From NCBI RefSeq assembly GCF_003334305.1, contig NZ_QOWS01000026.1: 64,000 bases of DNA; one strand, given 5' to 3'. The notes beneath the pieces are model-generated. The model saw only the letters and a list, made by a program, of their open reading frames with translations. It was not told the origin of the DNA and ran no database searches. Positions 5,726-54,980 of this stretch are shown here, in pieces. This DNA comes from Escherichia coli (GTDB lineage Bacteria > Pseudomonadota > Gammaproteobacteria > Enterobacterales > Enterobacteriaceae). The stretch's first letter is position 1; each line of letters opens with the position of its first letter. The translations under genes and the position numbers were made by a program.

Positions 5726-8738
<3,013 letters not shown>

Positions 8739-8742
8739 ACAC

Positions 8743-8870
8743 TGCCGGATGCGGCGCGAGCGCCTTATCCGGCCTACAGGTCGGCAACAGTTGTAGGCCT
8801 GATAAGACGCGACAGCGTCGCATCAGGCATTGATTGCCGGATGCGGCACGAGCGCCTTATCCGGCCTACG
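8743..8870. repeat. BIME: three REP elements in alternating orientation
   Basis: ctgccggatgcggcgcgagcgccttatccggcctaca, then tgtaggcctgataagacgcgacagcgtcgcatcaggca, then tgccggatgcggcacgagcgccttatccggcctac. These are canonical E. coli REP sequences between rhaA and rhaD. Confidence 0.9.
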
Positions 8871-8912: not shown

Positions 8913-9737
8913 ATGCAAAACATTACCCAGTCCTGGTTTGTCCAGGGAATGATCAAAGCCACCACCGATGCCTGGCTGAAAGGCTGGGACGAGCGCAACG
9001 GCGGCAACCTGACGCTGCGCCTGGATGACGCCGATATCGCGCCTTATAAAGACAACTTCCATGCACAACCGCGCTATATCCCGCTCAGCCAGCCCATGCC
9101 TTTACTGGCAAATACACCGTTTATTGTCACCGGCTCCGGCAAATTCTTCCGTAACGTCCAGCTTGATCCTGCAGCTAACTTAGGCGTCGTAAAAGTCGAC
9201 AGCGACGGCGCGGGCTACCATATTCTCTGGGGGTTAACCAACGAAGCCGTTCCAACTTCTGAACTTCCGGCTCACTTTCTCTCCCACTGCGAGCGCATTA
9301 AAGCCACCAACGGTAAAGATCGGGTGATCATGCACTGCCACGCCACCAACCTGATCGCCCTCACCTATGTACTGGAAAACGACACCGCGGTCTTTACTCG
9401 CCAACTGTGGGAAGGCAGCACCGAGTGTCTGGTGGTATTCCCGGATGGCGTTGGCATTCTGCCGTGGATGGTGCCCGGCACGGACGAAATCGGCCAGGCG
9501 ACCGCACAAGAGATGCAAAAACATTCGCTGGTGTTGTGGCCCTTCCACGGCGTCTTCGGCAGCGGGTCGACGTTGGATGAAACATTCGGTTTAATCGACA
9601 CCGCAGAAAAATCAGCACAAGTATTAGTGAAGGTTTATTCGATGGGCGGCATGAAACAGACCATCAGCCGTGAAGAGTTGATAGCGCTCGGCAAGCGCTT
9701 CGGCGTTACACCACTAGCCAGTGCGCTGGCGCTGTAA
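8913..9737 (+). CDS. rhaD: Rhamnulose-1-phosphate aldolase
   Basis: Track ORF 8841..9737 starts inside a REP. The ATG at 8913 gives [39 protein letters not shown], 274 aa, a class II aldolase. Confidence 0.95.
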
Positions 9738-9746
9738 GGAGCAAAC

Positions 9747-10061
9747 ATGATCCGCAAAGCCTTTGTCATGCAGGTTAACCCCGACGCTCACGAAGAGTAT
9801 CAGCGTCGGCATAACCCCATCTGGCCGGAACTGGAAGCAGTGTTGAAATCTCACGGTGCGCATAACTACGCCATTTACCTCGACAAAGCGCGTAATCTGC
9901 TGTTTGCCACGGTAGAGATTGAATCTGAAGAGCGCTGGAATGCGGTTGCCAGTACTGATGTTTGCCAACGTTGGTGGAAATATATGACCGACGTCATGCC
10001 CGCGAACCCGGATAACAGCCCGGTGAGTAGCGAACTGCAAGAAGTGTTTTACCTGCCGTAA
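9747..10061 (+). CDS. rhaM: L-rhamnose mutarotase
   Basis: 104 aa, [46 protein letters not shown]... (YiiL). Confidence 0.95.
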
Positions 10062-10070
10062 TTGCCTAAT

Positions 10071-10101
10071 GTGCCGGAGACGCCTCCGGCACAATATTTT
10101 T
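10071..10101 (+). terminator. Rho-independent terminator of the rha operon
   Basis: gtgccggag-acgc-ctccggcac (9-bp GC-rich stem) followed by aatattttta, 10 nt after the rhaM stop. Confidence 0.8.
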
Positions 10102-10373
10102 AATTTCGATTTGAAAAATAAACATATTACACCTTCAGTTAATATATCCCGGTAACTTATATTTCCCCGATGCATTGTGAGTAAATCACAAAAATAATGA
10201 ATAACTCATTAATGATTCATGTGGTTTATTTAAATAACCATTATGTGCATTACTCCGCAAATCTGACCTTTCACTCTGTCTCAAATTGTCATTGTTTACC
10301 GACATATCGCCTCTCATCACTTAATCGCTCCACCATTACAATTGATTAAAATATATTTCATGGAGTCCGATTA

Positions 10374-10820
10374 ATGGCAGCTCTTACTGCAAGCTGTATT
10401 GACCTGAATATTCAGGGCAATGGCGCTTATTCCATTCTGAAGCAGTTGGCGACAATGGCGTTACAAAACGGTTTTATCACCGACTCACACCAGTTCCTGC
10501 AAACCCTGCTGCTGCGCGAAAAAATGCACTCTACTGGATTTGGTTCCGGCATCGCCGTGCCGCACGGTAAAAGCGCCTGCGTTAAACAACCGTTCGTGTT
10601 ATTCGCCCGCAAAGCGCAGGCTATTGACTGGAAAGCCAGCGATGGCGAAGACGTCAATTGCTGGATCTGCCTCGGCGTGCCGCAAAGCGGCGAAGAGGAT
10701 CAGGTCAAAATCATCGGTACACTGTGTCGCAAAATTATCCACCAGGATTTTATTCACCAACTGCGACGAGGCGACGCCGACCAGGTGTTTGCCTTGTTAA
10801 ATCAAACCCTCAGCTCATAA
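10374..10820 (+). CDS. frvA: PTS fructose-like EIIA component
   Basis: 148 aa with the EIIA(Fru/Mtl/Ntr) phosphorylation motif GFGSGIAVPHGKS. Confidence 0.9.
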   Translation: MAALTASCIDLNIQGNGAYSILKQLATMALQNGFITDSHQFLQTLLLREKMHSTGFGSGIAVPHGKSACVKQPFVLFARKAQAIDWKASDGEDVNCWICLGVPQSGEEDQVKIIGTLCRKIIHQDFIHQLRRGDADQVFALLNQTLSS

Positions 10821-10830
10821 GGAAGTGGCG

Positions 10831-12282
10831 ATGGAGTCATCCTTACGTATTGTCGCGATCACCAACTGCCCCGCCGGGATCGCTCACACCTACATGGTGG
10901 CGGAAGCCCTGGAACAGAAAGCCCGTTCTCTCGGCCATACCATAAAAGTGGAAACTCAAGGGTCCAGTGGCGTTGAAAACCGCTTATCCAGCGAAGAGAT
11001 TGCCGCTGCCGATTACGTCATTCTCGCTACCGGGCGTGGCCTGAGCGGCGATGACCGGGCGCGGTTTGCCGGGAAGAAGGTTTATGAGATTGCCATCTCC
11101 CAGGCGTTGAAAAATATCGACCAGATTTTCAGTGAATTACCAACAAACTCGCAGCTTTTTGCCGCAGATAGCGGCGTGAAGCTCGGCAAACAGGAAGTAC
11201 AAAGCGGCAGCGTAATGAGCCACCTGATGGCGGGCGTCTCTGCGGCGCTGCCGTTTGTTATCGGTGGCGGTATCCTGGTGGCGCTTGCCAACATGCTGGT
11301 GCAGTTCGGCCTGCCGTATACCGATATGTCGAAAGGCGCGCCGTCGTTTACCTGGGTGGTTGAATCCATCGGTTATCTCGGCTTCACCTTTATGATCCCC
11401 ATCATGGGCGCTTATATTGCCTCGTCGATTGCCGATAAACCCGCTTTCGCTCCGGCGTTTCTGGTTTGCTATCTGGCGAATGACAAAGCCCTGCTCGGCA
11501 CCCAGTCAGGTGCGGGATTCCTCGGCGCGGTGGTGCTGGGGCTGGCGATTGGCTATTTCGTCTTCTGGTTCCGTAAAGTGCGCCTTGGCAAAGCATTACA
11601 ACCGCTGCTCGGTTCAATGCTGATCCCGTTCGTTACTCTGCTGGTTTTCGGCGTGCTCACTTACTACGTTATCGGACCGGTAATGTCCGACCTCATGGGC
11701 GGGTTGCTGCACTTCCTGAACACCATTCCTCCATCAATGAAATTTGCGGCAGCGTTTCTGGTCGGTGCGATGCTGGCGTTCGATATGGGCGGCCCCATCA
11801 ATAAAACCGCCTGGTTCTTCTGCTTCTCACTGCTGGAAAAACACATTTATGACTGGTACGCCATCGTCGGCGTTGTCGCGCTGATGCCGCCCGTCGCGGC
11901 GGGTCTTGCGACGTTCATTGCGCCCAAACTGTTTACCCGACAGGAAAAAGAGGCTGCCAGTAGTGCCATTGTGGTCGGTGCCACAGTCGCAACCGAACCG
12001 GCTATACCTTACGCTCTGGCAGCTCCGTTGCCGATGATTACCGCCAATACGCTGGCGGGTGGCATTACCGGCGTGCTGGTGATCGCTTTCGGAATCAAAC
12101 GTCTGGCACCTGGTTTGGGTATCTTTGACCCGCTGATCGGCCTGATGTCGCCGGTGGGTTCGTTTTATCTGGTGCTGGCGATTGGCCTCGCGCTGAACAT
12201 TTCATTCATTATCGTCCTGAAAGGATTGTGGTTACGCCGCAAAGCGAAAGCCGCGCAACAGGAGCTTGTCCATGAACATTGA
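10831..12282 (+). CDS. frvB: PTS fructose-like EIIB-EIIC component
   Basis: Track ORF 10825..12282. The ATG at 10831 is preceded by aaggaag. The N-terminal IIB domain has VAITNCPAGIAHTYM (Cys phosphorylation site), followed by a polytopic IIC domain. 483 aa. Confidence 0.9.
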   Translation: MESSLRIVAITNCPAGIAHTYMVAEALEQKARSLGHTIKVETQGSSGVENRLSSEEIAAADYVILATGRGLSGDDRARFAGKKVYEIAISQALKNIDQIFSELPTNSQLFAADSGVKLGKQEVQSGSVMSHLMAGVSAALPFVIGGGILVALANMLVQFGLPYTDMSKGAPSFTWVVESIGYLGFTFMIPIMGAYIASSIADKPAFAPAFLVCYLANDKALLGTQSGAGFLGAVVLGLAIGYFVFWFRKVRLGKALQPLLGSMLIPFVTLLVFGVLTYYVIGPVMSDLMGGLLHFLNTIPPSMKFAAAFLVGAMLAFDMGGPINKTAWFFCFSLLEKHIYDWYAIVGVVALMPPVAAGLATFIAPKLFTRQEKEAASSAIVVGATVATEPAIPYALAAPLPMITANTLAGGITGVLVIAFGIKRLAPGLGIFDPLIGLMSPVGSFYLVLAIGLALNISFIIVLKGLWLRRKAKAAQQELVHEH

Positions 12283-13342
12283 GTTACTGCAACAGTTGTG
12301 CGAAGCCAGCGCCGTCAGCGGCGATGAACAGGAAGTTCGCGACATTCTGATAAACACGCTGGAACCTTGCGTTAATGAAATCACCTTTGATGGTCTGGGC
12401 AGCTTTGTTGCCCGTAAGGGGAATAAAGGTCCAAAAGTTGCCGTTGTCGGGCATATGGATGAAGTCGGCTTTATGGTCACCCACATCGACGAGAGCGGTT
12501 TTCTGCGCTTCACCACCATTGGCGGCTGGTGGAATCAGTCGATGCTCAACCACCGGGTAACCATACGCACACACAAGGGATTTAAAATCCCTGGTGTGAT
12601 TGGTTCCGTCGCGCCTCATGCGTTAACGGAAAAGCAAAAGCAACAACCGCTGTCATTTGATGAGATGTTCATTGATATTGGCGCGAACAGTCGCGAAGAA
12701 GCGGAAAAGCGCGGCGTTGAAATTGGCGATTTTATTAGCCCGGAAGCCAATTTTGCCTGCTGGGGCGAAGATAAAGTAGTCGGAAAGGCGCTGGATAACC
12801 GCATCGGCTGCGCGATGATGGCGGAGCTACTACAGACAGTAAATAACCCAGAAATTACGCTGTACGGCGTTGGCAGTGTGGAAGAAGAAGTTGGGCTACG
12901 CGGGGCACAAACCTCGGCGGAACACATTAAACCGGATGTGGTGATTGTGCTGGATACCGCTGTCGCAGGTGATGTTCCGGGCATTGATAACATTAAATAC
13001 CCGCTGAAACTGGGCCAGGGGCCGGGGCTGATGCTGTTTGACAAGCGCTACTTCCCCAACCAGAAACTGGTAGCAGCGTTTAAAAACTGTGCCACGCAGA
13101 ATGATTTACCGCTGCAATTTTCCACCATGAAAACCGGAGCGACGGATGGCGGGCGCTACAACGTGATGGGCGGCGGGCGTCCGGTTGTCGCGCTGTGTCT
13201 GCCAACTCGTTATCTGCACGCCAACAGCGGTATGATTTCAAAAGCCGATTACGATGCTCTGCTCACGCTGATACGGGGTTTTCTGACCACCTTAACTGCG
13301 GAGAAAGTCAACGCGTTTAGCCAGTTCCGTCAGGTGGATTAA
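12272..13342 (+). CDS. frvX: M42-family metallopeptidase (CelM/FrvX type)
   Basis: Track ORF 12266..13342. The ATG at 12272 follows caggag. It reads MNIELLQQLCEASAVSGDEQEVRDIL...VGHMDEVGFMV...DNRIGCA, motifs typical of M42 aminopeptidases. It overlaps the frvB 3' end by 11 nt. Confidence 0.88.
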   Translation: MNIELLQQLCEASAVSGDEQEVRDILINTLEPCVNEITFDGLGSFVARKGNKGPKVAVVGHMDEVGFMVTHIDESGFLRFTTIGGWWNQSMLNHRVTIRTHKGFKIPGVIGSVAPHALTEKQKQQPLSFDEMFIDIGANSREEAEKRGVEIGDFISPEANFACWGEDKVVGKALDNRIGCAMMAELLQTVNNPEITLYGVGSVEEEVGLRGAQTSAEHIKPDVVIVLDTAVAGDVPGIDNIKYPLKLGQGPGLMLFDKRYFPNQKLVAAFKNCATQNDLPLQFSTMKTGATDGGRYNVMGGGRPVVALCLPTRYLHANSGMISKADYDALLTLIRGFLTTLTAEKVNAFSQFRQVD

Positions 13343-15090
13343 TGCTAAACGAACGCCAGTTAAAGATTGTCGATCTGCTGGAGCAACAGCCGCGCACGCC
13401 TGGTGAGCTGGCGCAACAGACTGGCGTTTCAGGCAGGACCATCCTGCGTGATATTGACTATCTCAACTTTACCCTTAACGGCAAAGCCCGCATTTCCGCC
13501 AGTGGTAGTGCGGGCTATCAGCTGGAAATCTTCGAGCGCCGCAGCTTTTTTCAGTTGCTGCAAAAGCACGATAACGACGATCGGCTGCTGGCACTGTTAT
13601 TACTGAATACCTTTACTCCCCGTGCGCAACTCGCCTCGGCGCTTAATTTGCCAGAAACGTGGGTCGCAGAGCGTCTGCCCCGGTTAAAACAGCGTTATGA
13701 ACGCGCTTGTTGCCTGGCCAGCCGCCCCGGTTTGGGCCATTTCATTGATGAGACAGAAGAGAAGCGCGTTATCTTGCTGGCGAACTTGCTGCGCAAAGAT
13801 CCGTTTTTAATTCCGCTGGCGGGCGTAACACGAGACAACCTTCAGCATTTATCCACGGCCTGCGACAACCAACACCGCTGGCCGCTCATGCAGGGTGATT
13901 ATCTCTCCAGCCTGATTCTGGCGATTTACGCCCTGCGTAATCAACTGACCGATGAGTGGCCGCAATATCCCGGTGACGAGATAAAACAAATCGTTGAACA
14001 TAGCGGTCTGTTTCTTGGTGATAACGCTGTAAGAACCCTGACAGGTTTGATAGAGAAACAGCATCAGCAAGCGCAGATAATTTCTGCCGATAATGTGCAG
14101 CGGTTGCTGCAAAGGGTGCCGGGCATCGCGTCATTGAATATTATTGATACGCAGCTGGTTGAGAACATTACCGGGCATTTATTACGTTGCCTTGCCGCAC
14201 CGGTGTGGATTGCTGAGCACCGCCAAAGCAGCATGAATAACCTGAAAGCCGCCTGGCCTGCGGCCTTTGATATGAGTCTGCACTTTATTACGCTACTGCG
14301 TGAACAGCTCGATATTCCCCTTTTCGACAGCGATCTGATCGGTTTGTATTTTGCCTGTGCGCTGGAACGGCATCAAAACGAACGCCAGCCGATCATTTTG
14401 CTCTCGGACCAGAACGCGATTGCCACTATTAATCAGCTCGCCATTGAGCGCGATGTTTTACATTGTCGGGTGATTATTGCCCGTAGCTTAAGCGAACTTG
14501 TTGCCATTCGCGAAGAGATTGAGCCGTTATTGATCATTAACAACAGCCATTATTTACTGGATGACGCGGTAAATAATTACATCACCGTAAAAAATATCAT
14601 TACGGCTGCCGGTATCGAACAAATAAAACATTTTCTGGCGACGGCATTTATTCGCCAACAGCCGGAGCGTTTTTTCTCTGCCCCCGGAAGTTTTCATTAT
14701 TCGAATGTACGCGGTGAAAGCTGGCAACATATTACCCGGCAAATTTGTGCGCAATTAGTCGCACAACACCATATTACCGCCGATGAAGCACAACGCATCA
14801 TCGCCCGCGAAGGCGAAGGTGAAAACCTGATTGTTAATCGCCTCGCCATCCCACATTGCTGGAGCGAACAGGAGCGACGTTTTCGTGGATTTTTTATTAC
14901 CCTCGCCCAACCAGTTGAGGTGAATAACGAAGTCATTAACCATGTCTTGATCGCCTGCGCCGCCGCCGATGCGCGTCATGAGCTAAAAATATTTAGCTAT
15001 CTGGCAAGCGTATTGTGTCAGCATCCGGCAGAGGTTATTGCCGGGTTAACAGGATATGAGGCATTTATGGAGTTACTTCACAAGGGGTGA
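13342..15090 (+). CDS. frvR: frv operon regulator: N-terminal winged HTH plus C-terminal EIIA-like domain
   Basis: 582 aa. The N-terminus LKIVDLLEQQPRTPGELAQQTGVSGRTILRDIDYLN is a DeoR-type wHTH. The C-terminal region carries NRLAIPHCW, which resembles an EIIA phospho-His motif. The start overlaps the frvX stop (TAATG). Confidence 0.88.
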   Translation: MLNERQLKIVDLLEQQPRTPGELAQQTGVSGRTILRDIDYLNFTLNGKARISASGSAGYQLEIFERRSFFQLLQKHDNDDRLLALLLLNTFTPRAQLASALNLPETWVAERLPRLKQRYERACCLASRPGLGHFIDETEEKRVILLANLLRKDPFLIPLAGVTRDNLQHLSTACDNQHRWPLMQGDYLSSLILAIYALRNQLTDEWPQYPGDEIKQIVEHSGLFLGDNAVRTLTGLIEKQHQQAQIISADNVQRLLQRVPGIASLNIIDTQLVENITGHLLRCLAAPVWIAEHRQSSMNNLKAAWPAAFDMSLHFITLLREQLDIPLFDSDLIGLYFACALERHQNERQPIILLSDQNAIATINQLAIERDVLHCRVIIARSLSELVAIREEIEPLLIINNSHYLLDDAVNNYITVKNIITAAGIEQIKHFLATAFIRQQPERFFSAPGSFHYSNVRGESWQHITRQICAQLVAQHHITADEAQRIIAREGEGENLIVNRLAIPHCWSEQERRFRGFFITLAQPVEVNNEVINHVLIACAAADARHELKIFSYLASVLCQHPAEVIAGLTGYEAFMELLHKG

Positions 15091-15093
15091 ACT

Positions 15094-15118
15094 GTGTCGG
15101 ATGCGCCGCATCCGACAC
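15094..15118. terminator. Hairpin between convergent frvR and yiiG
   Basis: gtgtcggatgcg/cgcatccgacac is a near-perfect inverted repeat lying 4 nt after the frvR stop and 22 nt after the yiiG stop. Confidence 0.55.
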
Positions 15119-15139: not shown

Positions 15140-16180
15140 TTAACGCAGGCTATTATAGTCATCAACCATTTCGTTGTACTCGCGTAATGCTCTCGGGAAA
15201 GAGTCGTCGACCATCCAGCTTGAGTTTGCGTCCTGCAGTTGCTCTTTATCCCAGTCAGAGTACGGGACTTTATCTCTGACGCGGCGAACGTATTTTTTAG
15301 CCTCGAGTTGATACTGGCCTGCCGAATTAATAAACGAGAAATTCATGCCGCCTTTATCCGCTTCTTTGGCCTGCGCCACCAGCGTTTCCAGTTCAGACAC
15401 TTTCTTCATTGCCGCTTCTGCATCAAACTTATCTTGCGATATCAGGTTATTAATTTGTTTCGCTGAAATCATGACTGCCAGAGAGTAATAGTGGAATGTT
15501 TTCCCTTCTCTTTCTTCAATATTTTTCAGTTCCGCAAGCTGGCGCTTATCGTTAATTTCCTGAATCGCCGCATGATAAGATTCTGCTACAGGTTCAAAGG
15601 CTTCCAGATTTTTTAAGAATGTCTGGTGCAGCGTTTTCCCTTTCGCAAACGCATCGTCTTTATAATTTTCCTGGGTGTAATATTTATCCATTTCGTTAAT
15701 GGTATTACCCAACGCCACGGCAGCATCGATATAACTCACCGCCACGCCATCAATTGGTTGCAGCGCAGGCGTTAACGCCACAGCACTTTTTACGCCTTTT
15801 TCACACTCAGCGAGGTTGGATTCACTAATGCCGTAGATGCCATAAACAGTACGCTCTTCACCGGTAGGCCCCTGTTTAAAATCTTTCAGCCAGTCAGCAT
15901 AACGCGCCAGACTGCTCTGTACAGGGATCTGTAACTTGTTATAGCACTTGATATAGACATCCATTTTTTCGTCGAAAACCGCTTGTTCATCGACCACCGG
16001 TTGCGCAGGTGTTTCAGGTTTAGCTTCTGCTTTTGCAACGGGAGCTTCAGGAGCTGGTGCGGCAGGTTGACTATTGGCAGGCGGGGGCGTTTCTGTTTCG
16101 GCTTTTTTATCATCACAACCCGTCAGACCGAGGGCCATGATGGCGACTATAATAGCGGAAGATAATAAATTCCTTTTCAT
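15140..16180 (-). CDS. yiiG: Lipoprotein YiiG (DUF3829 family)
   Basis: 346 aa. The signal peptide has the lipobox LGLTGC, followed by a Pro/Ala/Glu-rich linker. It matches my recollection of YiiG, which is 351 aa in K-12. Confidence 0.85.
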   Translation of the reverse strand: MKRNLLSSAIIVAIMALGLTGCDDKKAETETPPPANSQPAAPAPEAPVAKAEAKPETPAQPVVDEQAVFDEKMDVYIKCYNKLQIPVQSSLARYADWLKDFKQGPTGEERTVYGIYGISESNLAECEKGVKSAVALTPALQPIDGVAVSYIDAAVALGNTINEMDKYYTQENYKDDAFAKGKTLHQTFLKNLEAFEPVAESYHAAIQEINDKRQLAELKNIEEREGKTFHYYSLAVMISAKQINNLISQDKFDAEAAMKKVSELETLVAQAKEADKGGMNFSFINSAGQYQLEAKKYVRRVRDKVPYSDWDKEQLQDANSSWMVDDSFPRALREYNEMVDDYNSLR

Positions 16181-17359: not shown

Positions 17360-20300
17360 ATGCAGGTCAGCAGAAGGCAGTTCTTTAAGATCTGCGCTGG
17401 CGGTATGGCAGGCACCACGGCAGCGGCACTGGGTTTTGCACCCAGCGTAGCGCTCGCGGAAACCCGGCAGTATAAACTGCTGCGCACCCGCGAAACCCGT
17501 AATACCTGCACCTATTGTTCCGTAGGCTGTGGGCTGTTGATGTACAGCCTCGGTGACGGAGCAAAAAACGCCAAAGCATCTATCTTCCATATCGAAGGCG
17601 ATCCGGATCACCCGGTCAACCGCGGTGCACTTTGTCCGAAAGGCGCTGGCCTGGTGGATTTCATCCACTCCGAAAGCCGTCTGAAGTTTCCGGAATACCG
17701 TGCGCCAGGTTCTGATAAATGGCAGCAAATCAGTTGGGAAGAGGCGTTTGATCGCATCGCCAAACTGATGAAAGAAGACCGCGATGCTAACTACATTGCG
17801 CAAAACGCCGAAGGCGTGACTGTTAACCGCTGGCTCTCCACCGGGATGCTGTGTGCTTCCGCGTCGAGTAACGAAACCGGCTATTTAACGCAAAAATTCT
17901 CCCGCGCGCTGGGTATGCTCGCGGTCGACAACCAGGCGCGTGTCTGACACGGACCAACGGTAGCAAGTCTTGCTCCAACATTTGGTCGCGGTGCGATGAC
18001 CAACCACTGGGTCGACATCAAGAACGCCAACCTCGTCGTGGTGATGGGCGGTAACGCCGCTGAAGCTCACCCGGTCGGGTTCCGCTGGGCGATGGAAGCC
18101 AAAATTCACAACGGCGCGAAGCTGATTGTGATCGATCCTCGCTTTACGCGTACGGCGGCGGTAGCTGACTACTATGCCCCTATTCGTTCCGGTACTGACA
18201 TTGCTTTCCTGTCAGGCGTATTGCTGTACCTGCTGAACAATGAAAAATTCAACCGCGAATACACCGAAGCCTATACCAACGCAAGCCTGATAGTGCGTGA
18301 GGATTACGGCTTTGAAGATGGCCTGTTCACCGGCTACGACGCGGAAAAACGCAAGTACGATAAATCCTCCTGGACTTATGAACTGGACGAAAACGGCTTC
18401 GCCAAACGCGATACCACGCTGCAACATCCGCGCTGCGTGTGGAACTTGCTGAAACAGCACGTTTCCCGCTACACGCCAGATGTGGTTGAAAACATCTGTG
18501 GTACGCCAAAAGACGCGTTCCTGAAAGTCTGCGAATACATCGCAGAAACCAGTGCTCACGATAAAACTGCCTCGTTCCTCTATGCCCTCGGCTGGACGCA
18601 ACACTCCGTTGGTGCGCAAAACATTCGTACGATGGCGATGATCCAGCTGCTGCTCGGCAATATGGGGATGGCCGGCGGCGGCGTTAACGCCCTGCGCGGT
18701 CACTCCAATATTCAGGGGCTGACGGACCTGGGGCTGCTGTCGCAGAGTCTGCCAGGTTACATGACGCTGCCAAGCGAGAAGCAGACCGATCTGCAAACCT
18801 ACCTTACCGCCAACACGCCAAAACCGCTGCTGGAAGGCCAGGTAAACTACTGGGGCAACTACCCGAAATTCTTCGTCTCTATGATGAAGGCCTTCTTTGG
18901 TGATAAAGCGACGGCGGAAAATAGCTGGGGCTTTGACTGGTTGCCGAAGTGGGATAAAGGCTACGACGTCCTGCAATACTTCGAGATGATGAAAGAAGGC
19001 AAGGTCAATGGCTATATCTGCCAGGGCTTTAACCCTGTTGCCTCATTCCCGAACAAAAACAAAGTGATCGGTTGTCTGTCGAAACTGAAGTTCCTCGTCA
19101 CCATCGACCCGCTGAACACTGAAACCTCTAACTTCTGGCAGAACCACGGTGAGCTGAACGAAGTTGACTCGTCGAAGATCCAGACCGAAGTGTTCCGTCT
19201 GCCATCGACCTGCTTCGCAGAAGAGAACGGTTCAATCGTTAACTCAGGTCGCTGGTTGCAGTGGCACTGGAAAGGTGCGGACGCCCCGGGGATTGCGCTG
19301 ACTGATGGCGAGATCCTCTCCGGTATCTTCCTGCGCTTGCGCAAGATGTATGCCGAACAGGGTGGCGCGAACCCGGACCAGGTGCTGAACATGACCTGGA
19401 ACTACGCCATTCCGCATGAGCCGAAGTCGGAAGAAGTAGCGATGGAGAGCAACGGTAAGGCGCTGGCCGATATTACCGATCCGGCAACCGGTGCGGTTAT
19501 CGTCAAGAAAGGCCAACAACTTAGCTCGTTCGCCCAATTGCGCGATGACGGTACAACCTCCTGTGGCTGCTGGATTTTCGCCGGTAGCTGGACGCCGGAA
19601 GGCAACCAGATGGCGCGTCGTGATAACGCCGATCCGTCTGGCCTCGGTAACACGCTGGGCTGGGCATGGGCATGGCCGCTTAACCGCCGCATTCTGTATA
19701 ACCGCGCCTCCGCAGATCCGCAGGGTAACCCGTGGGATCCGAAGCGTCAGTTGCTGAAATGGGACGGCACTAAGTGGACCGGCTGGGATATTCCGGACTA
19801 CAGCGCAGCGCCTCCGGGTAGCGGCGTCGGGCCGTTTATCATGCAGCAGGAAGGCATGGGGCGTCTGTTTGCCCTCGATAAGATGGCGGAAGGTCCGTTC
19901 CCGGAACACTACGAGCCGTTTGAAACGCCGCTGGGAACTAACCCGCTGCATCCAAACGTTATCTCGAACCCGGCTGCACGTATCTTTAAAGACGACGCCG
20001 AAGCATTGGGTAAAGCCGATAAGTTCCCGTATGTCGGAACCACCTATCGTCTGACCGAGCATTTCCACTACTGGACCAAACACGCGCTGTTGAACGCGAT
20101 TTTGCAACCAGAGCAGTTTGTGGAAATCGGGGAGTCGCTGGCGAATAAACTTGGCATTGCCCAGGGCGATACCGTGAAAGTCTCCTCCAACCGTGGCTAT
20201 ATCAAGGCCAAAGCGGTGGTGACCAAACGTATTCGTACACTGAAAGTGAACGGCAAAGATATCGATACCATCGGTATTCCGATTCACTGGGGCTATGAAG

Positions 20301-44316: not shown

Positions 44317-44456
44317 GATGAAGCATCTTACGCTTACGCCAAAAAAGAAAGCAATTAACGGCGTATGACTTTGCAGATAATTGTGACAAAGCTCTCTATT
44401 GACGTAATCCCAGACTTATAAGGGAGATACTCGCATTGGTGTGCGCTCACGACAGG

Positions 44457-44490
44457 TAAAAAAAAACCTGCCAGCGATGGCAGGTTTTTT
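44457..44490. terminator. Bidirectional rho-independent terminator downstream of bipA
   Basis: aaaaaaaaa-acctgcc-agcga-tggcaggt-tttttt, flanked by A and T runs. Confidence 0.85.
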
Positions 44491-44507
44491 ATAACTAAAA
44501 AACGAAA

Positions 44508-46331
44508 TTAATCGTCTTTCGGTGCGCGGTTGGCGCGGCGACGATCGTTTTCCGTCAGGTGACGTTTACGAATACGGATAGAGGTCGGAGTCACTTCTAC
44601 TAGTTCGTCATCATCGATGAACTCCAGAGCTTGTTCCAGAGTCATGCGGATAGGCGGAACCAGAACAACGGCTTCGTCAGTACCGGAAGCACGCATGTTG
44701 GTCAGTTTCTTACCGGTCAGGCAGTTTACCGTCAGGTCGTTAGAGCGGCTATGAATACCGATAATCTGACCTTCGTAAACTTCTGCACCGTGACCGAGGA
44801 ACAGCTTACCGCGATCCTGCAGACCGAACAGCGCGAACGCGACCGCTTTACCCTGACCGTTAGAGATCAGTACGCCGTTCTGACGCTGACCCACTTCACC
44901 CGGACGTACGTCGTCGTAGTGGCTGAAGGTGGAGTACAGCAGACCAGTACCGGAAGTCATGGTCATGAACTCAGAACGGAAGCCAATCAGACCACGGCTT
45001 GGGATCACGTAGTCGAGACGTACGCGGCCTTTACCGTCTGGATTCATGTTTTTCAGGTCGCCTTTACGTTCGCCCAGCGCCTGCATTACAGAACCCTGAT
45101 GCTGTTCTTCAACGTCCAGAGTCACGTTTTCATATGGCTCTTGTTTACGACCGTCGATTTCACGGAAGATAACTTTCGGACGGGATACCGCCAGTTCGAA
45201 ACCTTCACGACGCATGTTTTCGATCAGAACAGACAGGTGTAGTTCGCCACGACCAGAAACGCGGAACGCATCAGCGTCTTCGGTTTCTTCTACGCGCAGC
45301 GCAACGTTGTGTACCAGTTCTTTGTTCAGACGATCCAGGATCTGACGAGACGTTACGAACTTACCTTCTTTACCGCAGAACGGCGAGGTGTTAACGCAGA
45401 AGAACATAGAAACGGTCGGCTCATCAACGGAGAGTGCCGGCAGCGCTTCAACGTTTTGCGTGTCGCAAACGGTGTCAGAAATGTTCAGTTCGCCAAGGCC
45501 CGTGATCGCAACGATATCGCCAGCTTCCGCCAGGTCGGTTTCGATACGTTCCAGACCGAGGTGGCCCAGCACTTTACCGACTTTCGCGTTGCGGGTTTTG
45601 CCTTCGCTATCGATGATAGTGACCTGCTGGTTCGGCTTCACTTTACCGCGCTTGATGCGGCCAATGCCGATAACGCCAACATAGCTGTTGTAATCGAGCT
45701 GAGAAATCTGCATCTGGAACGGACCGTCAAGGTCAACGTCCGGCGCAGGAACGTGGTCAACAATCGCCTGGTACAGCGGGGTCATGTCTTCCGCCATATC
45801 TTCGTGGTCCAGACCCGCGATACCGTTCAGCGCAGAAGCGTAAACGATCGGGAAGTCCAACTGCTCGTCGGTCGCGTCGAGGTTAACGAACAGATCGAAT
45901 ACCTGATCCACAACCCAATCAGGACGCGCGCCAGGGCGGTCAACTTTGTTGATAACAACAATCGGCTTCAGGCCGTAAGCAAACGCTTTTTTGGTTACGA
46001 AGCGCGTTTGCGGCATCGGGCCGTCAAATGCGTCAACCACCAGCAGCACTGAGTCTACCATGGACATTACACGTTCAACTTCACCACCGAAGTCGGCGTG
46101 CCCCGGGGTATCAACGATGTTGATACGGTAATCATTCCATTTGATAGCGGTGTTTTTCGCGAGGATGGTAATCCCACGCTCTTTCTCCAAATCGTTGGAG
46201 TCCATCACGCGCTCTTGGGTTTCGGCACGAGAGTCGAACGTACCGGATTGTTGGAGCAGCTTGTCTACCAGGGTGGTTTTACCATGGTCTACGTGCGCGA
46301 TGATGGCGATATTACGCAATTTTTCGATCAC
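44508..46331 (-). CDS. bipA: Ribosome-associated translational GTPase BipA/TypA
   Basis: 607 aa, [32 protein letters not shown]...[15 protein letters not shown]... Confidence 0.97.
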
Positions 46332-46482
46332 AACTTTGCCTCAGGCATTAGAAATAGCGCGTTATTGTACACGGATTAATCGCACTACAAAACAGGATCA
46401 CAAACATCCTCCGCAAACAAGTATTGCAGAGTCCCTTTGTGATCGCTTTCACGGAGCATAAAAAGGGTTATCCAAAGGTCAT

Positions 46483-46573
46483 TGCACCAACATGGTGCTT
46501 AATGTTTCCATTGAAGCACTATATTGGTGCAACATTCACATCGTGGTGCAGCCCTTTTGCACGATGGTGCGCA
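46483..46573. promoter_or_regulatory. NtrC enhancer sites upstream of glnA
   Basis: There are four TGCACC-N5-GGTGCA-like sites: tgcaccaacatggtgct (46483), gcactatattggtgca (46516), ttcacatcgtggtgca (46535) and tgcacgatggtgcgca (46558). Confidence 0.85.
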
Positions 46574-53385: not shown

Positions 53386-53452
53386 AATGGTTCGTCTTTT
53401 AGCCGTTTTATTCAGTATAGATTTGCGGCGGAATCTAACAGAAAGCAAGCAA

Positions 53453-53696
53453 AGAAAAAAGGCGACAGATTACTCTGTCGCCTTTTTTCCTGACTCATAA
53501 CCCTTAACGGGTCTTACAATCCTTGCAGGCCGCCAACACACCCTGTTTTTCCTTTAGCCGGAACAATCCGTGTTGATTCCATTTCCGTTTAATTACGTCT
53601 CCGGACGTTTGTCTTCCTGACAATCCTCTGTCTTCGCCTCCTGGCGCTCCTGACCCTCATCCTGAGTCATTGTTCCTGTTAGCGTCCTCGCTCTAT
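53453..53696 (-). ncRNA. csrC: CsrC, the CsrA-sequestering sRNA
   Basis: The minus strand reads ATAGAGCGAGGACGCTAACAGGAACAATGACTCAGGATGAGGGTCAGGAGCGCCAGGAGG... and carries 14 GGA motifs (counted by hand). It ends in the terminator ggcgacag-agtaatc-tgtcgcc plus a T run. It lies in the yihA-yihI intergenic region, as known for csrC. Confidence 0.92.
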
Positions 53697-54724: not shown

Positions 54725-54833
54725 TAAAAAACGCCCCAGTCATTACTGACTGGGGCGGCTAAAATATTCAGCCAAATCCGATTACGTGAAGTAAAAGGTC
54801 TGAAAGATAGAACATCTTACCTCTGTACCCTAC
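54725..54833 (-). ncRNA. spf: Spot 42 sRNA
   Basis: The minus strand reads GTAGGGTACAGAGGTAAGATGTTCTATCTTTCAGACCTTTTACTTCACGTAATCGGATTTGGCTGAATATTTTAGCCGCCCCAGTCAGTAATGACTGGGGCGTTTTTTATT, which is the Spot 42 sequence as I recall it. It lies between polA and yihA. Confidence 0.95.
54768..54815 (-). CDS. spfP: 15-aa ORF inside Spot 42 (SpfP)
   Basis: ATGTTCTATCTTTCAGACCTTTTACTTCACGTAATCGGATTTGGCTGA encodes MFYLSDLLLHVIGFG*, preceded by GAGGTAAG. I recall it reported as a translated small protein. Confidence 0.6.
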   Translation of the reverse strand: MFYLSDLLLHVIGFG

Positions 54834-54980
54834 GCGACTAACTTTACTCTTTTTTGTTCAGTTCAGAAAGCACTTTTTGTAATTTTTTTTCAGTTGTTGC
54901 ATAGGAATTTCTAATAGCCATCACAAAACGTGACAGCTTATGTTGCTTACTTACGAAAAAAGGGCATGTTCAGGCGAATC

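Follow-up and report, generated by a model that had tools for sequence, protein, structure and literature searches.

The frvABXR operon of Escherichia coli, an apparently mobile phosphotransferase cassette that may import sugars linked to amino acids or peptides

Positions 10374-15090 of a 64,000-nucleotide stretch of Escherichia coli DNA (contig NZ_QOWS01000026.1 of assembly GCF_003334305.1, henceforth the window) hold a single unit of four open reading frames (ORFs), which encode the enzyme IIA (EIIA) and the enzyme IIB-C (EIIB-C) of a phosphotransferase system (PTS), an aminopeptidase of family M42 and a regulator of 582 residues. This is the long-annotated frvABXR operon, an object already known since RefSeq annotates it identically in E. 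coli, where its genes are labelled frvA, frvB, frvX and frvR; as such it belongs to textbook annotation. The substrates of the orphan PTS operons of E. coli K-12 (frv, fry, frw, sgc and others) have remained unknown for some 30 years, and the three that include an M42 peptidase are the oddest. The best explanation of the locus as a whole, to which we give about an even chance (roughly 0.5), is that the known frvABXR operon handles a cargo in which a sugar is joined to an amino acid or peptide, under the control of an activator, FrvR, itself controlled by the PTS. Comparison with related operons suggests that the amino-acid or peptide part of this cargo would have its alpha-amine free, because three PTS families are repeatedly paired with aminopeptidases and with a pyridoxal phosphate (PLP)-dependent beta-lyase. 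The same recurrent pairings, with no sugar-bond-cleaving enzyme seen alongside, disfavour alpha-Amadori compounds and plain sugars. What is new here is the domain map of FrvR, a set of predicted promoter elements, a five-gene version of the operon in Listeria and a link with PatB-family lyases, which together make the question more testable.

The operon and its enzymes

The four genes, with the family matches or methods that describe them, are the following.

10374..10820, + strand: frvA, fructose-family EIIA, 148 residues (PTS_EIIA_2 3.2e-34; NF007389 3.6e-87; TIGR00848 8e-43)
10831..12282, + strand: frvB, EIIB fused to a fructose-family EIIC, 483 residues (ATG start; in-frame GTG at 10825)
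12272..13342, + strand: frvX, M42 (TET-type) aminopeptidase, 356 residues (Peptidase_M42, PF05343, 2e-102, profile positions 1-292 of 292)
13342..15090, + strand: frvR, regulator of 582 residues (Pfam, NCBIfam, family alignment, AlphaFold2 model, Foldseek, hhalign)

The DNA is 100% identical in E. coli H15 and A7 and 97.2% identical in K-12-type genomes, and each of the four proteins matches its own NCBIfam frv equivalog model. A first reading made from the letters alone (hereafter the original prediction) had placed four translationally coupled genes here and quoted the motifs GIAVPHG, NCPAGIAHTYM and AIPHCW; genes and motifs are all found where it put them. Its description of the junctions stands for two of the three: the frvB stop TGA (12280-12282) and the frvX ATG (12272) create an overlap of 11 nucleotides, and frvX and frvR overlap as TAATG (13340-13344). 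However, frvA and frvB, read directly from the sequence, are merely adjacent, the frvA stop TAA (10818-10820) being followed by a 10-nucleotide spacer with AGGAAG, the ribosome-binding site of frvB, and then by the frvB ATG. The ribosome-binding site of frvA is GGAG, at 10362-10365.

FrvA carries GIAVPHG at residues 59-65, with the phospho-acceptor H64 (codon 10563-10565), R48 and E49 making up the RE...PH phosphorylation motif of Mtl/Fru/Ntr-type EIIA. FrvB combines a PTS_IIB domain (residues 9-101, 1e-20) with a PTS_EIIC domain (134-406, 6e-34), matches NF008493 (1034 bits), TIGR00829 (9.5e-30) and TIGR01427 (1e-57), and displays the N-terminal phospho-cysteine of its class, C13 in NCPAGIAHTYM (codon 10867-10869). 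By family criteria FrvA and FrvB are the EIIA and EIIBC of a PTS of the fructose family (TC 4.A.2).

The two-metal site of FrvX is intact (H61, D175, E206, D228 and H316, with catalytic E205 and D63), the metal-ligand numbering being presumably that of PhTET2 offset by +7. All these residues are invariant across FrvX orthologues, YpdE and SgcX, and predict a catalytically intact M42 aminopeptidase. The PDB holds 21 relatives at E <=1e-5, the closest including 1vhe, 5ds0 and 1y0r, which are TET/M42 aminopeptidases. FrvX matches over its full length, with E from 4e-87 to 3e-34, the TET1-3 enzymes of P. horikoshii, YsdC of B. subtilis, PepA of S. pneumoniae and TmPep1050 of T. maritima; yet these are stand-alone or tandem general peptidases, whereas FrvX is embedded in a PTS cassette. 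Several PDB relatives, as well as sgcX, are still named 'endoglucanase', and a RafY-type glycoporin gene adjoins frvA in numerous E. coli strains as well as in certain other genera, so that one could follow the old 'endoglucanase/CelM' annotation of M42 proteins and see FrvX as glycan-active in vivo on a phospho-oligosaccharide. This is barely credible: the labelling of M42 proteins as cellulases has proved mistaken and the conserved residues are those of the two-metal aminopeptidase set. The porin itself looks like a matter of synteny, not of function, because it is kept in strains lacking frv and lies beside other sugar genes in Scandinavium.

Peptidases and lyases beside sugar permeases

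The three M42 paralogues of E. coli, FrvX, YpdE and SgcX, had been said to sit each in a PTS operon, and K-12 annotation agrees for the last two: ypdE lies inside fryBC-ypdF-ypdE-fryA and sgcX inside sgcXBCQAER, both of them orphan PTS operons whose M42 paralogue has the same catalytic set as FrvX. Otherwise the systems differ from frv, as Fry is of the Fru type with an EI-HPr-EIIA fusion and Sgc of the Gat type, with an AraC-type (YpdC) and a DeoR-type (SgcR) regulator, and with the extra enzymes YpdF (M24), SgcE and SgcQ. The original prediction depended on this linkage being conserved outside E. coli. It is indeed present elsewhere: in at least eight enterobacterial genera, Hafnia, at least four species of Listeria sensu lato, Clostridioides difficile, Sarcina and Erysipelotrichaceae. 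It is nevertheless clade-specific and no property of the M42 family at large, an extension that had to be rejected: a genome scan of 65 distant M42 loci found 9 linked to a PTS and 56 without a detectable PTS gene, detection resting on phmmer and jackhmmer searches seeded with Fru-, Gat- and Lac-family proteins, so that Man- and Asc-family genes could be missed. The non-PTS M42 genes of Clostridia and other anaerobes are mostly head-to-tail paralogue doublets or triplets (loci L029, L034, L036-L049, L055, L057, L068, L069, L071, L077, L079, L082, L086 and others).

Where the linkage exists, it often involves a third partner. The Listeria version of the operon has five genes, with a PatB-family carbon-sulfur (C-S) lyase encoded between frvX and frvR (TIGR04350, 362 bits for a cut-off of 340). 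In a cassette of low guanine-plus-cytosine (GC) content, L090, the order is FrvA-FrvB-PatB-FrvR, the lyase being kept without any M42 protein, and a second low-GC cassette encodes FrvB-PatB-FrvR followed by a different peptidase of clan MH (M20/M28/M42-like). Superficieibacter has a PatB-family gene convergent with frvR and directly after it. Among the nine PTS-linked distant M42 loci, five (from C. difficile, two Clostridium-like genomes, Sarcina and one metagenome-assembled genome) combine a LicR-type regulator and/or Lac-family EIIA, EIIB and EIIC with M42 and a PatB-family lyase, and these operons also carry an M24 YpdF-like or an M17 aminopeptidase. The C. difficile operon reads regulator-M42-EIIA-EIIB-EIIC-M24-PatB, and the YpdE/YpdF pair has a counterpart in a PTS operon of this species (42% and 34% identity). 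The PatB/MalY-family C-S lyase genes located in or beside M42- or FrvR-type PTS operons are these.

L021:9122-10297, lyase gene
L074:11633-12820, lyase gene (C. difficile)
L052:6753-7970, lyase gene
L088:2108-3295, lyase gene
L014:10824-12023, lyase gene
L090:2239-3405, lyase gene of the cassette without M42
L092:403-1575, lyase gene

The other four PTS-linked distant loci are arranged as regulator-EIIC-GrdB-like-M42-M42. There, a 'GrdB-related putative oxidoreductase' of 173 residues without selenocysteine (NF041545, 6.8e-75) is encoded between the EIIC gene and the M42 pair, at about 6250-6830 in each of L027, L028, L035 and L060 (Erysipelotrichaceae, Holdemanella, Eubacterium and Clostridium). 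In C. difficile, genes for an AgaS-family sugar isomerase and a GatY/KbaY-type tagatose-bisphosphate aldolase (L074:3095-5157) directly precede the M42-PTS operon, and an aldose 1-epimerase gene comes after it on the opposite strand.

No glycosidase, kinase, aldolase or deglycase was present in any frv-type cassette seen, and no glycosidase gene in the four Firmicute frv-type or M42-linked PTS loci checked. The original prediction had the peptidase act on the transported cargo, perhaps a glycated or glycosylated amino acid or peptide. The recurrence of PatB-type lyases and of M24 and M17 peptidases favours the amino-acid moiety, but the glycated variant, an Amadori or Heyns compound such as a fructosyl-amino acid, fits poorly and we regard it as very unlikely. 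To be fair to it, the permease is of the fructose family, and enteric bacteria do have PTS or permease systems for fructoselysine, glucoselysine and fructose-asparagine. However, the SIS-type deglycases, kinases or amidases of the known Amadori pathways are missing from frv-type cassettes, and M42 aminopeptidases as well as PLP lyases need a free alpha-amine, which is blocked in alpha-fructosyl amino acids. The SIS gene of C. difficile does not change this picture: the AgaS-family gene lies outside the regulator-to-lyase block and pairs with the tagatose-bisphosphate aldolase.

A more prosaic view holds that FrvX is an ordinary aminopeptidase of the housekeeping type, set among PTS genes by historical accident or by co-regulation, for instance to provide amino acids during growth on a given carbon source, and that FrvA and FrvB carry a plain fructose- or mannose-like sugar. 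Its canonical M42 active site, the general TET aminopeptidases that are its nearest solved relatives, the 56 distant loci devoid of PTS neighbours, often with tandem M42 genes, and the loss of the frvB-frvX and frvX-frvR overlaps in Hafnia all speak for this view. Yet the Fru, Gat and Lac families of PTS have independently kept an M42 gene in their operons, in Proteobacteria and in Firmicutes, and these operons also hold PatB-type lyases and M24 or M17 peptidases; furthermore, the frv cassette moves as a unit that includes frvX, a gene constrained at a ratio of nonsynonymous to synonymous substitution rates (dN/dS) of 0.06-0.15. A plain-sugar PTS would moreover lack any enzyme processing the sugar phosphate in its operon, which is unusual unless the product is already a central metabolite. 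On balance we consider this view unlikely.

A mobile cassette under purifying selection

The same four genes are found in Citrobacter, Klebsiella, Superficieibacter, Trabulsiella, Scandinavium and Atlantibacter. In Hafnia (L005-L007) they occupy another chromosomal site, with dapB/xanthine-dehydrogenase-like genes on one side and ispH on the other, and it is there that the two gene overlaps are not kept. Listeria newyorkensis, cornellensis, goaensis and fleischmannii (L021-L023, L091) also have frv genes, whose products are about as close to those of E. coli as are those of Hafnia (identity of 77-78% for FrvB, 60-64% for FrvX and 31-35% for FrvR), and FrvR-like proteins are recorded from L. 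grandensis, weihenstephanensis and booriae. The GC content of the cassette differs from that of its flanks, being higher in Listeria and lower in Hafnia. Because of these new settings, of the presence in Listeria and Hafnia and of a composition unlike that of the flanks, frv is, as far as genome comparison tells, a self-contained and horizontally mobile cassette, moving between chromosomal contexts and phyla. A further record, L017, titled 'Chryseobacterium sp. 18061', contains an enterobacterial-type porin-frvABXR arrangement with an FrvX 76% identical to that of the window, and is probably a case of contamination or mislabelling.

Of 5426 complete E. coli genomes, 4185 contain the operon at a coverage of at least 80%. 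The dN/dS values of the four genes (Nei-Gojobori) range from 0 to 0.36 within the species and from 0.03 to 0.13 against Citrobacter, Klebsiella and Trabulsiella, and the FrvB proteins of the window and of the K-12 allele are 100% identical despite a synonymous divergence (dS) of 0.09. All four genes are under purifying selection and the operon is not decaying. It may be added that in 508 of the E. coli genomes bearing frv the identity to the window is no more than 90-95%, an unusual divergence for chromosomal DNA of this species, that the dS of rhaM between window and K-12 is 0.23, and that in E. coli ECMA0423 (L024) frvA, frvB, frvX and frvR are each split into several ORFs, through sequencing frameshifts or genuine pseudogenisation.

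A regulator of the Firmicute kind

The likeness that the original prediction saw between FrvR and the MtlR/LicR controllers of Firmicutes proved stronger than first apparent, fold comparison and profile alignment being in agreement. These methods were needed since a PDB sequence search with FrvR found no relative. Foldseek matched residues ~1-480 to MgaSpn, AtxA and 3sqn (an E. faecalis Mga-like protein) over about 480 columns, with E of 3e-10 to 1.5e-9, and the C-terminus to EIIA-Ntr and EIIA-Mtl with a template-modelling (TM) score of ~0.73. When the family profile of FrvR was compared by hhalign with six Firmicute PRD regulators, which carry the Pfam domains HTH_11, Mga, PRD and EIIA_2, the alignment ran end to end (columns 1-581, probability 99%, E 6e-18). 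The resulting map comprises a winged helix-turn-helix (wHTH) at 1-63, a second one at 78-135, a helical PRD-like region at 139-343, an EIIB-like alpha/beta domain at 349-440 and an EIIA domain at 450-582; the AlphaFold2 model, with a predicted local distance difference test score of 84.8, likewise runs from two winged helices through a long helical region and an alpha/beta domain to an EIIA domain. Pfam recognises HTH_11 (3e-10, residues 5-60), a weak second HTH (79-116) and PTS_EIIA_2 (4.5e-13, 455-560), and there is a weak NCBIfam match of the AcpB/EbpR/MafR kind at the N-terminus. The N-terminal wHTH had been called DeoR-like: a wHTH is present, but the two units align with the HTH_11 plus Mga region of PRD regulators, which makes that label imprecise. 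The Pfam PRD domain is absent at E <=0.01 from FrvR and from all 152 listed members of its family, a narrow one, for which word-index searches returned 135 and 32 proteins, essentially from Enterobacterales and Listeria.

The C-terminal EIIA-like domain had also been predicted, with its histidine retained; the PTS_EIIA_2 match bears this out, and H505 in AIPHCW (codon 14854-14856) is, as is H279, invariant in 28 orthologues. R489, E490 and H505 are invariant and align with the RE...PH motif in the EIIA domain of PRD regulators. H279 aligns with the first conserved histidine of PRD2, the second being replaced by an invariant tyrosine, Y336, and the phospho-cysteine of the EIIB-like domain is lost, with S355 at the cysteine position of IICSSGGG and S, A or C across the family. 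Taken together, the model and the alignments place FrvR as a full-length, divergent regulator of the MtlR/LicR/ManR (Mga) class with a reduced set of phosphorylation sites. The cross-phylum mobility of the cassette fits with this Firmicute flavour.

B. subtilis MtlR, LicR and ManR share with FrvR the order of their parts (wHTH, Mga-like wHTH, PRD region, EIIB(Gat)-like and EIIA(Mtl/Fru)-like domains), the EIIA histidine and one PRD2 histidine, and FrvR too is encoded with the PTS that it presumably controls, its candidate operator being a palindrome just upstream of a weak -35 box. FrvR, by contrast, has no Pfam PRD by sequence, has Y336, lacks the EIIB-like phospho-cysteine, lives in a proteobacterial host and is known from sequence and model. 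Mga, AtxA, MgaSpn and AcpB, the best structural matches to residues ~1-480, also have degenerate PRDs and an EIIB-like domain without cysteine; but they end at that domain, with no EIIA, and control virulence regulons, not an adjacent PTS.

The region upstream of frvA

The gap between rhaM and frvA, 10062-10373, is 312 bp long, and its AT-richness, emphasised in the original prediction, is real: the GC content is 0.33 over 10100-10399, 0.25 over 10094-10243 and 0.38 over 10244-10373, for about 0.53 in the genes of the operon. The features of this region, together with the two boundaries of the operon, are listed below.

10063..10185, no strand: lineage-specific AT-rich junction (blastn against the O157 locus L003 matches only 9700-10062 and 10186-10900)
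10070..10093, + strand: intrinsic terminator of rhaM, hairpin and T-run, the upstream boundary (terminator scan; fold -19.5 kcal/mol, z = -5.7)
10244..10259, + strand: P1, TGTG-N8-C(A/G)CA, TGTGCATTACTCCGCA in the window (CRP-like geometry TGTGN-N6-NCACA; cross-genus alignment)
10287..10304, + strand: P2, palindrome TGTCA-N8-TGACA, TGTCATTGTTTACCGACA in the window (abuts the -35 region; candidate FrvR operator)
10314..10319, + strand: weak -35 candidate TCATCA (3/6 matches), in a conserved CTCATC block (cross-genus alignment)
10337..10342, + strand: -10 candidate TACAAT (TAnAAT in most genera), conserved at -35 to -38 from the ATG
15094..15118, no strand: stable hairpin between the convergent frvR and yiiG, the downstream boundary (fold -19.4 kcal/mol, z = -4.7)

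The operon forms a compact transcription unit between the rhaM terminator and the hairpin that follows frvR. Its upstream gap is composite. The proximal 188 bp (10186-10373) are common to the window and to E. coli O157, and the distal 123 bp replace 1723 bp which, in O157, B and many other strains, contain the divergent gene of a RafY-family glycoporin (464 residues, L003:1203-2597, Pfam Porin_8 4.5e-152, divergent from frvA), absent from the window and from K-12. The most AT-rich stretch, 10094-10185, is therefore lineage-specific filler at a porin-deletion junction and not a conserved silencer. Of the 5426 complete E. coli genomes, 2557 contain the porin gene at a coverage of at least 80%, a few of these matches being plasmid paralogues. 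Scandinavium has it beside a GH4-EIIC-GntR cluster, and in Citrobacter and Scandinavium a gene for an XRE-cupin protein and azlCD separate it from frvA. The RafY-type porin was considered as a clue to the substrate and rejected as weak, as it is kept without frv and lies beside other sugar genes in Scandinavium. The XRE-cupin regulator gene and azlC-azlD stand directly upstream of frvA in Citrobacter braakii (L012:4294-5926) and Scandinavium (L018:4318-5953), azlCD, of a branched-chain amino-acid exporter family, being there on the same strand as frvA.

The conserved 188 bp carry an ordered promoter, predicted to be of the activator-dependent type. A scan of 10094-10373 for a consensus sigma-70 promoter gave no site, as expected of such a promoter, and the elements were found solely through cross-genus alignment. 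P1, P2 and the -10 box stand at fixed distances from the ATG in 11 of the 13 enterobacterial upstream regions aligned. P1 lies at -128 to -131 in most of the 13 and at -119 in Scandinavium, where P1 and P2 stand closer together by about 10 bp (roughly one helical turn), and P2 is fixed at -85 to -88 in the 11. P1 agrees with the CRP core at 7 of its 10 positions in E. coli, and at 8 in most other genera, with a spacer of exactly 6 bp and the flank CAAA, not CATTT. Transcription would start near 10349, which puts the predicted centre of P1 at about -97.5. Equivalents of P1 and P2 were not found upstream of the Listeria frv genes, and a search of the rest of the window for other palindromes of the P2 type, which might be additional targets of FrvR, gave 3 matches where 1.8 were expected, which is not significant.

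Could frv, in E. coli, be a remnant in the style of bgl, silenced by H-NS bound to the AT-rich DNA upstream, dispensable and in the course of being lost? Like frv, bgl combines PTS genes with a regulator under PTS control (predicted in the case of frv) and AT-rich upstream DNA, and it is not expressed in the laboratory. Experiments have established that H-NS silences bgl, but for frv such silencing is conjecture, and the PRD protein BglG is an RNA-binding antiterminator, not a DNA-binding activator. The GC content of 0.25-0.38 and the want of a consensus sigma-70 promoter are what a silenced remnant would display, as are the degeneration of P1 and P2 in E. coli with respect to other genera and the clean deletion or IS1 insertion that removed frv from about 23% of complete E. 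coli genomes. The gene frvA is also among those for which chromatin immunoprecipitation on microarrays found the distribution of RNA polymerase to be altered in an rpoZ mutant (PMC5811629), a weak point in favour, as many of the genes listed there look to be of the silenced kind. However, the operon persists with intact genes in 4185 genomes under purifying selection (dN/dS at most 0.36, and an unchanged FrvB), the promoter architecture is kept across genera, and the most AT-rich segment is the filler just described. Silencing and an inducer-specific function are in any case not mutually exclusive. That frv is no more than such a remnant seems to us quite unlikely.

A proposed function, and what weighs against it

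In the explanation that we prefer, FrvA and FrvB would take up a sugar conjugated to an amino acid or short peptide and phosphorylate its hexose-type moiety, as expected of the fructose/mannose family, while FrvX would trim N-terminal residues from the phosphorylated cargo or cut an aminoacyl bond within it. From there the sugar phosphate would pass into central metabolism, no other dedicated enzyme being needed, and in the Firmicute versions the PatB/MalY-type PLP beta-lyase of the operon would handle the remaining Cys/Ser-type moiety. FrvR may activate transcription from TGTCA-N8-TGACA, probably with CRP bound farther upstream, at TGTG-N8-CACA. On the model of MtlR, LicR and ManR it would be under PTS phosphorylation control, H505 in its EIIA domain acting negatively, as a substrate sensor, through FrvA and FrvB, and H279 in the PRD-like region acting positively, through HPr. 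The operon would thus be silent under laboratory conditions, for want of its inducing substrate, and not dead.

Partial precedents exist. The malX-malY pair of E. coli, a PTS EIIBC and a beta C-S lyase of the PatB/MalY family without peptidase, presents the same unexplained combination of PTS permease and PatB-family lyase as Listeria frv, L090 and the Lac-family operons. It differs from frv by its Glc-family permease and its lack of a peptidase, E. coli frv having the peptidase but no lyase. The alf-2 cluster of L. casei, devoted to a glycoamino acid (6'-fucosyl-GlcNAc-Asn), associates a sugar permease with the peptidase PepV and a PLP enzyme of aminotransferase fold, AsdA (PMC6960285). Unlike in frv, its permease belongs to the major facilitator superfamily and not to the PTS, the bond is cut by a glycosylasparaginase and a fucosidase, and PepV is not required (PMC6960285); by analogy, alf-2 offers a partial precedent for a frv-type use of glycoamino acids.

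Several points weigh against the proposed function. FrvX is the only enzyme of the enterobacterial cassette able to break the bond between sugar and amino acid, and characterised M42 enzymes are general aminopeptidases; moreover, as the scan of distant loci makes plain, most of their genes have no detectable PTS gene nearby. PatB/MalY-type proteins can serve cysteine or methionine metabolism or, for MalY, bind a regulator. The operon is dispensable, since about 23% of complete E. coli genomes are without it, through a deletion that truncates yiiG or through IS1 (L001, L004). The domain arrangement of FrvR is uncertain because its AlphaFold2 model was built on a shallow alignment of 28 sequences and has a predicted TM-score (pTM) of 0.58. 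P1 and P2 are a candidate CRP site and a candidate FrvR operator by resemblance only: their right half-sites in E. coli deviate from the cross-genus consensus (CGCA for CACA in P1, CGACA for TGACA in P2), and about -97.5 is no canonical class I position for CRP. Finally, a literature search covering frvA/B/X/R, YpdE and SgcX, M42 with PTS, H-NS and CRP found no functional study of frvABXR, and a 2023 review lists frvA and frvB as putative. Most literature matches to 'frvA' concern an unrelated P-type ATPase of Listeria.

One may go further and see frv, fry, sgc, Listeria frv and the clostridial Lac-family M42 operons, perhaps malXY as well, as a single strategy of glycosyl-amino-acid or glycopeptide catabolism, but this is a long shot. 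Such a conjugate, for instance O-mannosyl- or O-GalNAc-Ser/Thr or S-glycosyl-Cys, would enter through the PTS and have its sugar phosphorylated there; aminopeptidases of families M42, M24 (for X-Pro) and M17 would shorten its peptide part until the alpha-amine is exposed; and a PatB/MalY-type PLP enzyme, with no need for a glycosidase, would free the sugar phosphate by beta-elimination, yielding pyruvate and ammonia. Enterobacterial frv would then be a lyase-less derivative that uses a chromosomal lyase such as MalY or MetC. This scheme is compatible with the data since frv-type cassettes have no glycosidase, kinase or deglycase, since the lyase is kept without M42 in L090, and given the AgaS and GatY/KbaY neighbours in C. 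difficile.

Other features of the window

Convergent with frvR, yiiG (15140-16180, - strand) encodes a DUF3829 protein (3.3e-103) and is partly deleted in strains lacking frv. Elsewhere in the window, matches above the Rfam gathering score are as follows.

53443-53696, - strand: CsrC
54725-54843, - strand: Spot 42
17942-18000, + strand: SECIS element
8796-8866, - strand: naRNA4, here a repetitive extragenic palindrome (REP)-derived element upstream of rhaD
46413-46520, - strand: ES222
44455-44523, - strand: STnc370

Significance

The comparative results suggest a short list of candidate chemistries for the substrate of frv, culturable Listeria species offer a natural version with five genes, and the promoter and regulator analyses offer definite predictions: an operator at 10287-10304, a CRP-like site at 10244-10259 and two regulatory histidines, H279 and H505, in FrvR. 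If the cargo truly joins a sugar to an amino acid or peptide, it would represent a new class of nutrients for enteric bacteria, Listeria and Clostridia, with glycopeptides of the host or of its diet as obvious candidates. M42 enzymes would gain a physiological role beyond the bulk turnover of peptides, and the old puzzle of malX-malY could find its explanation.

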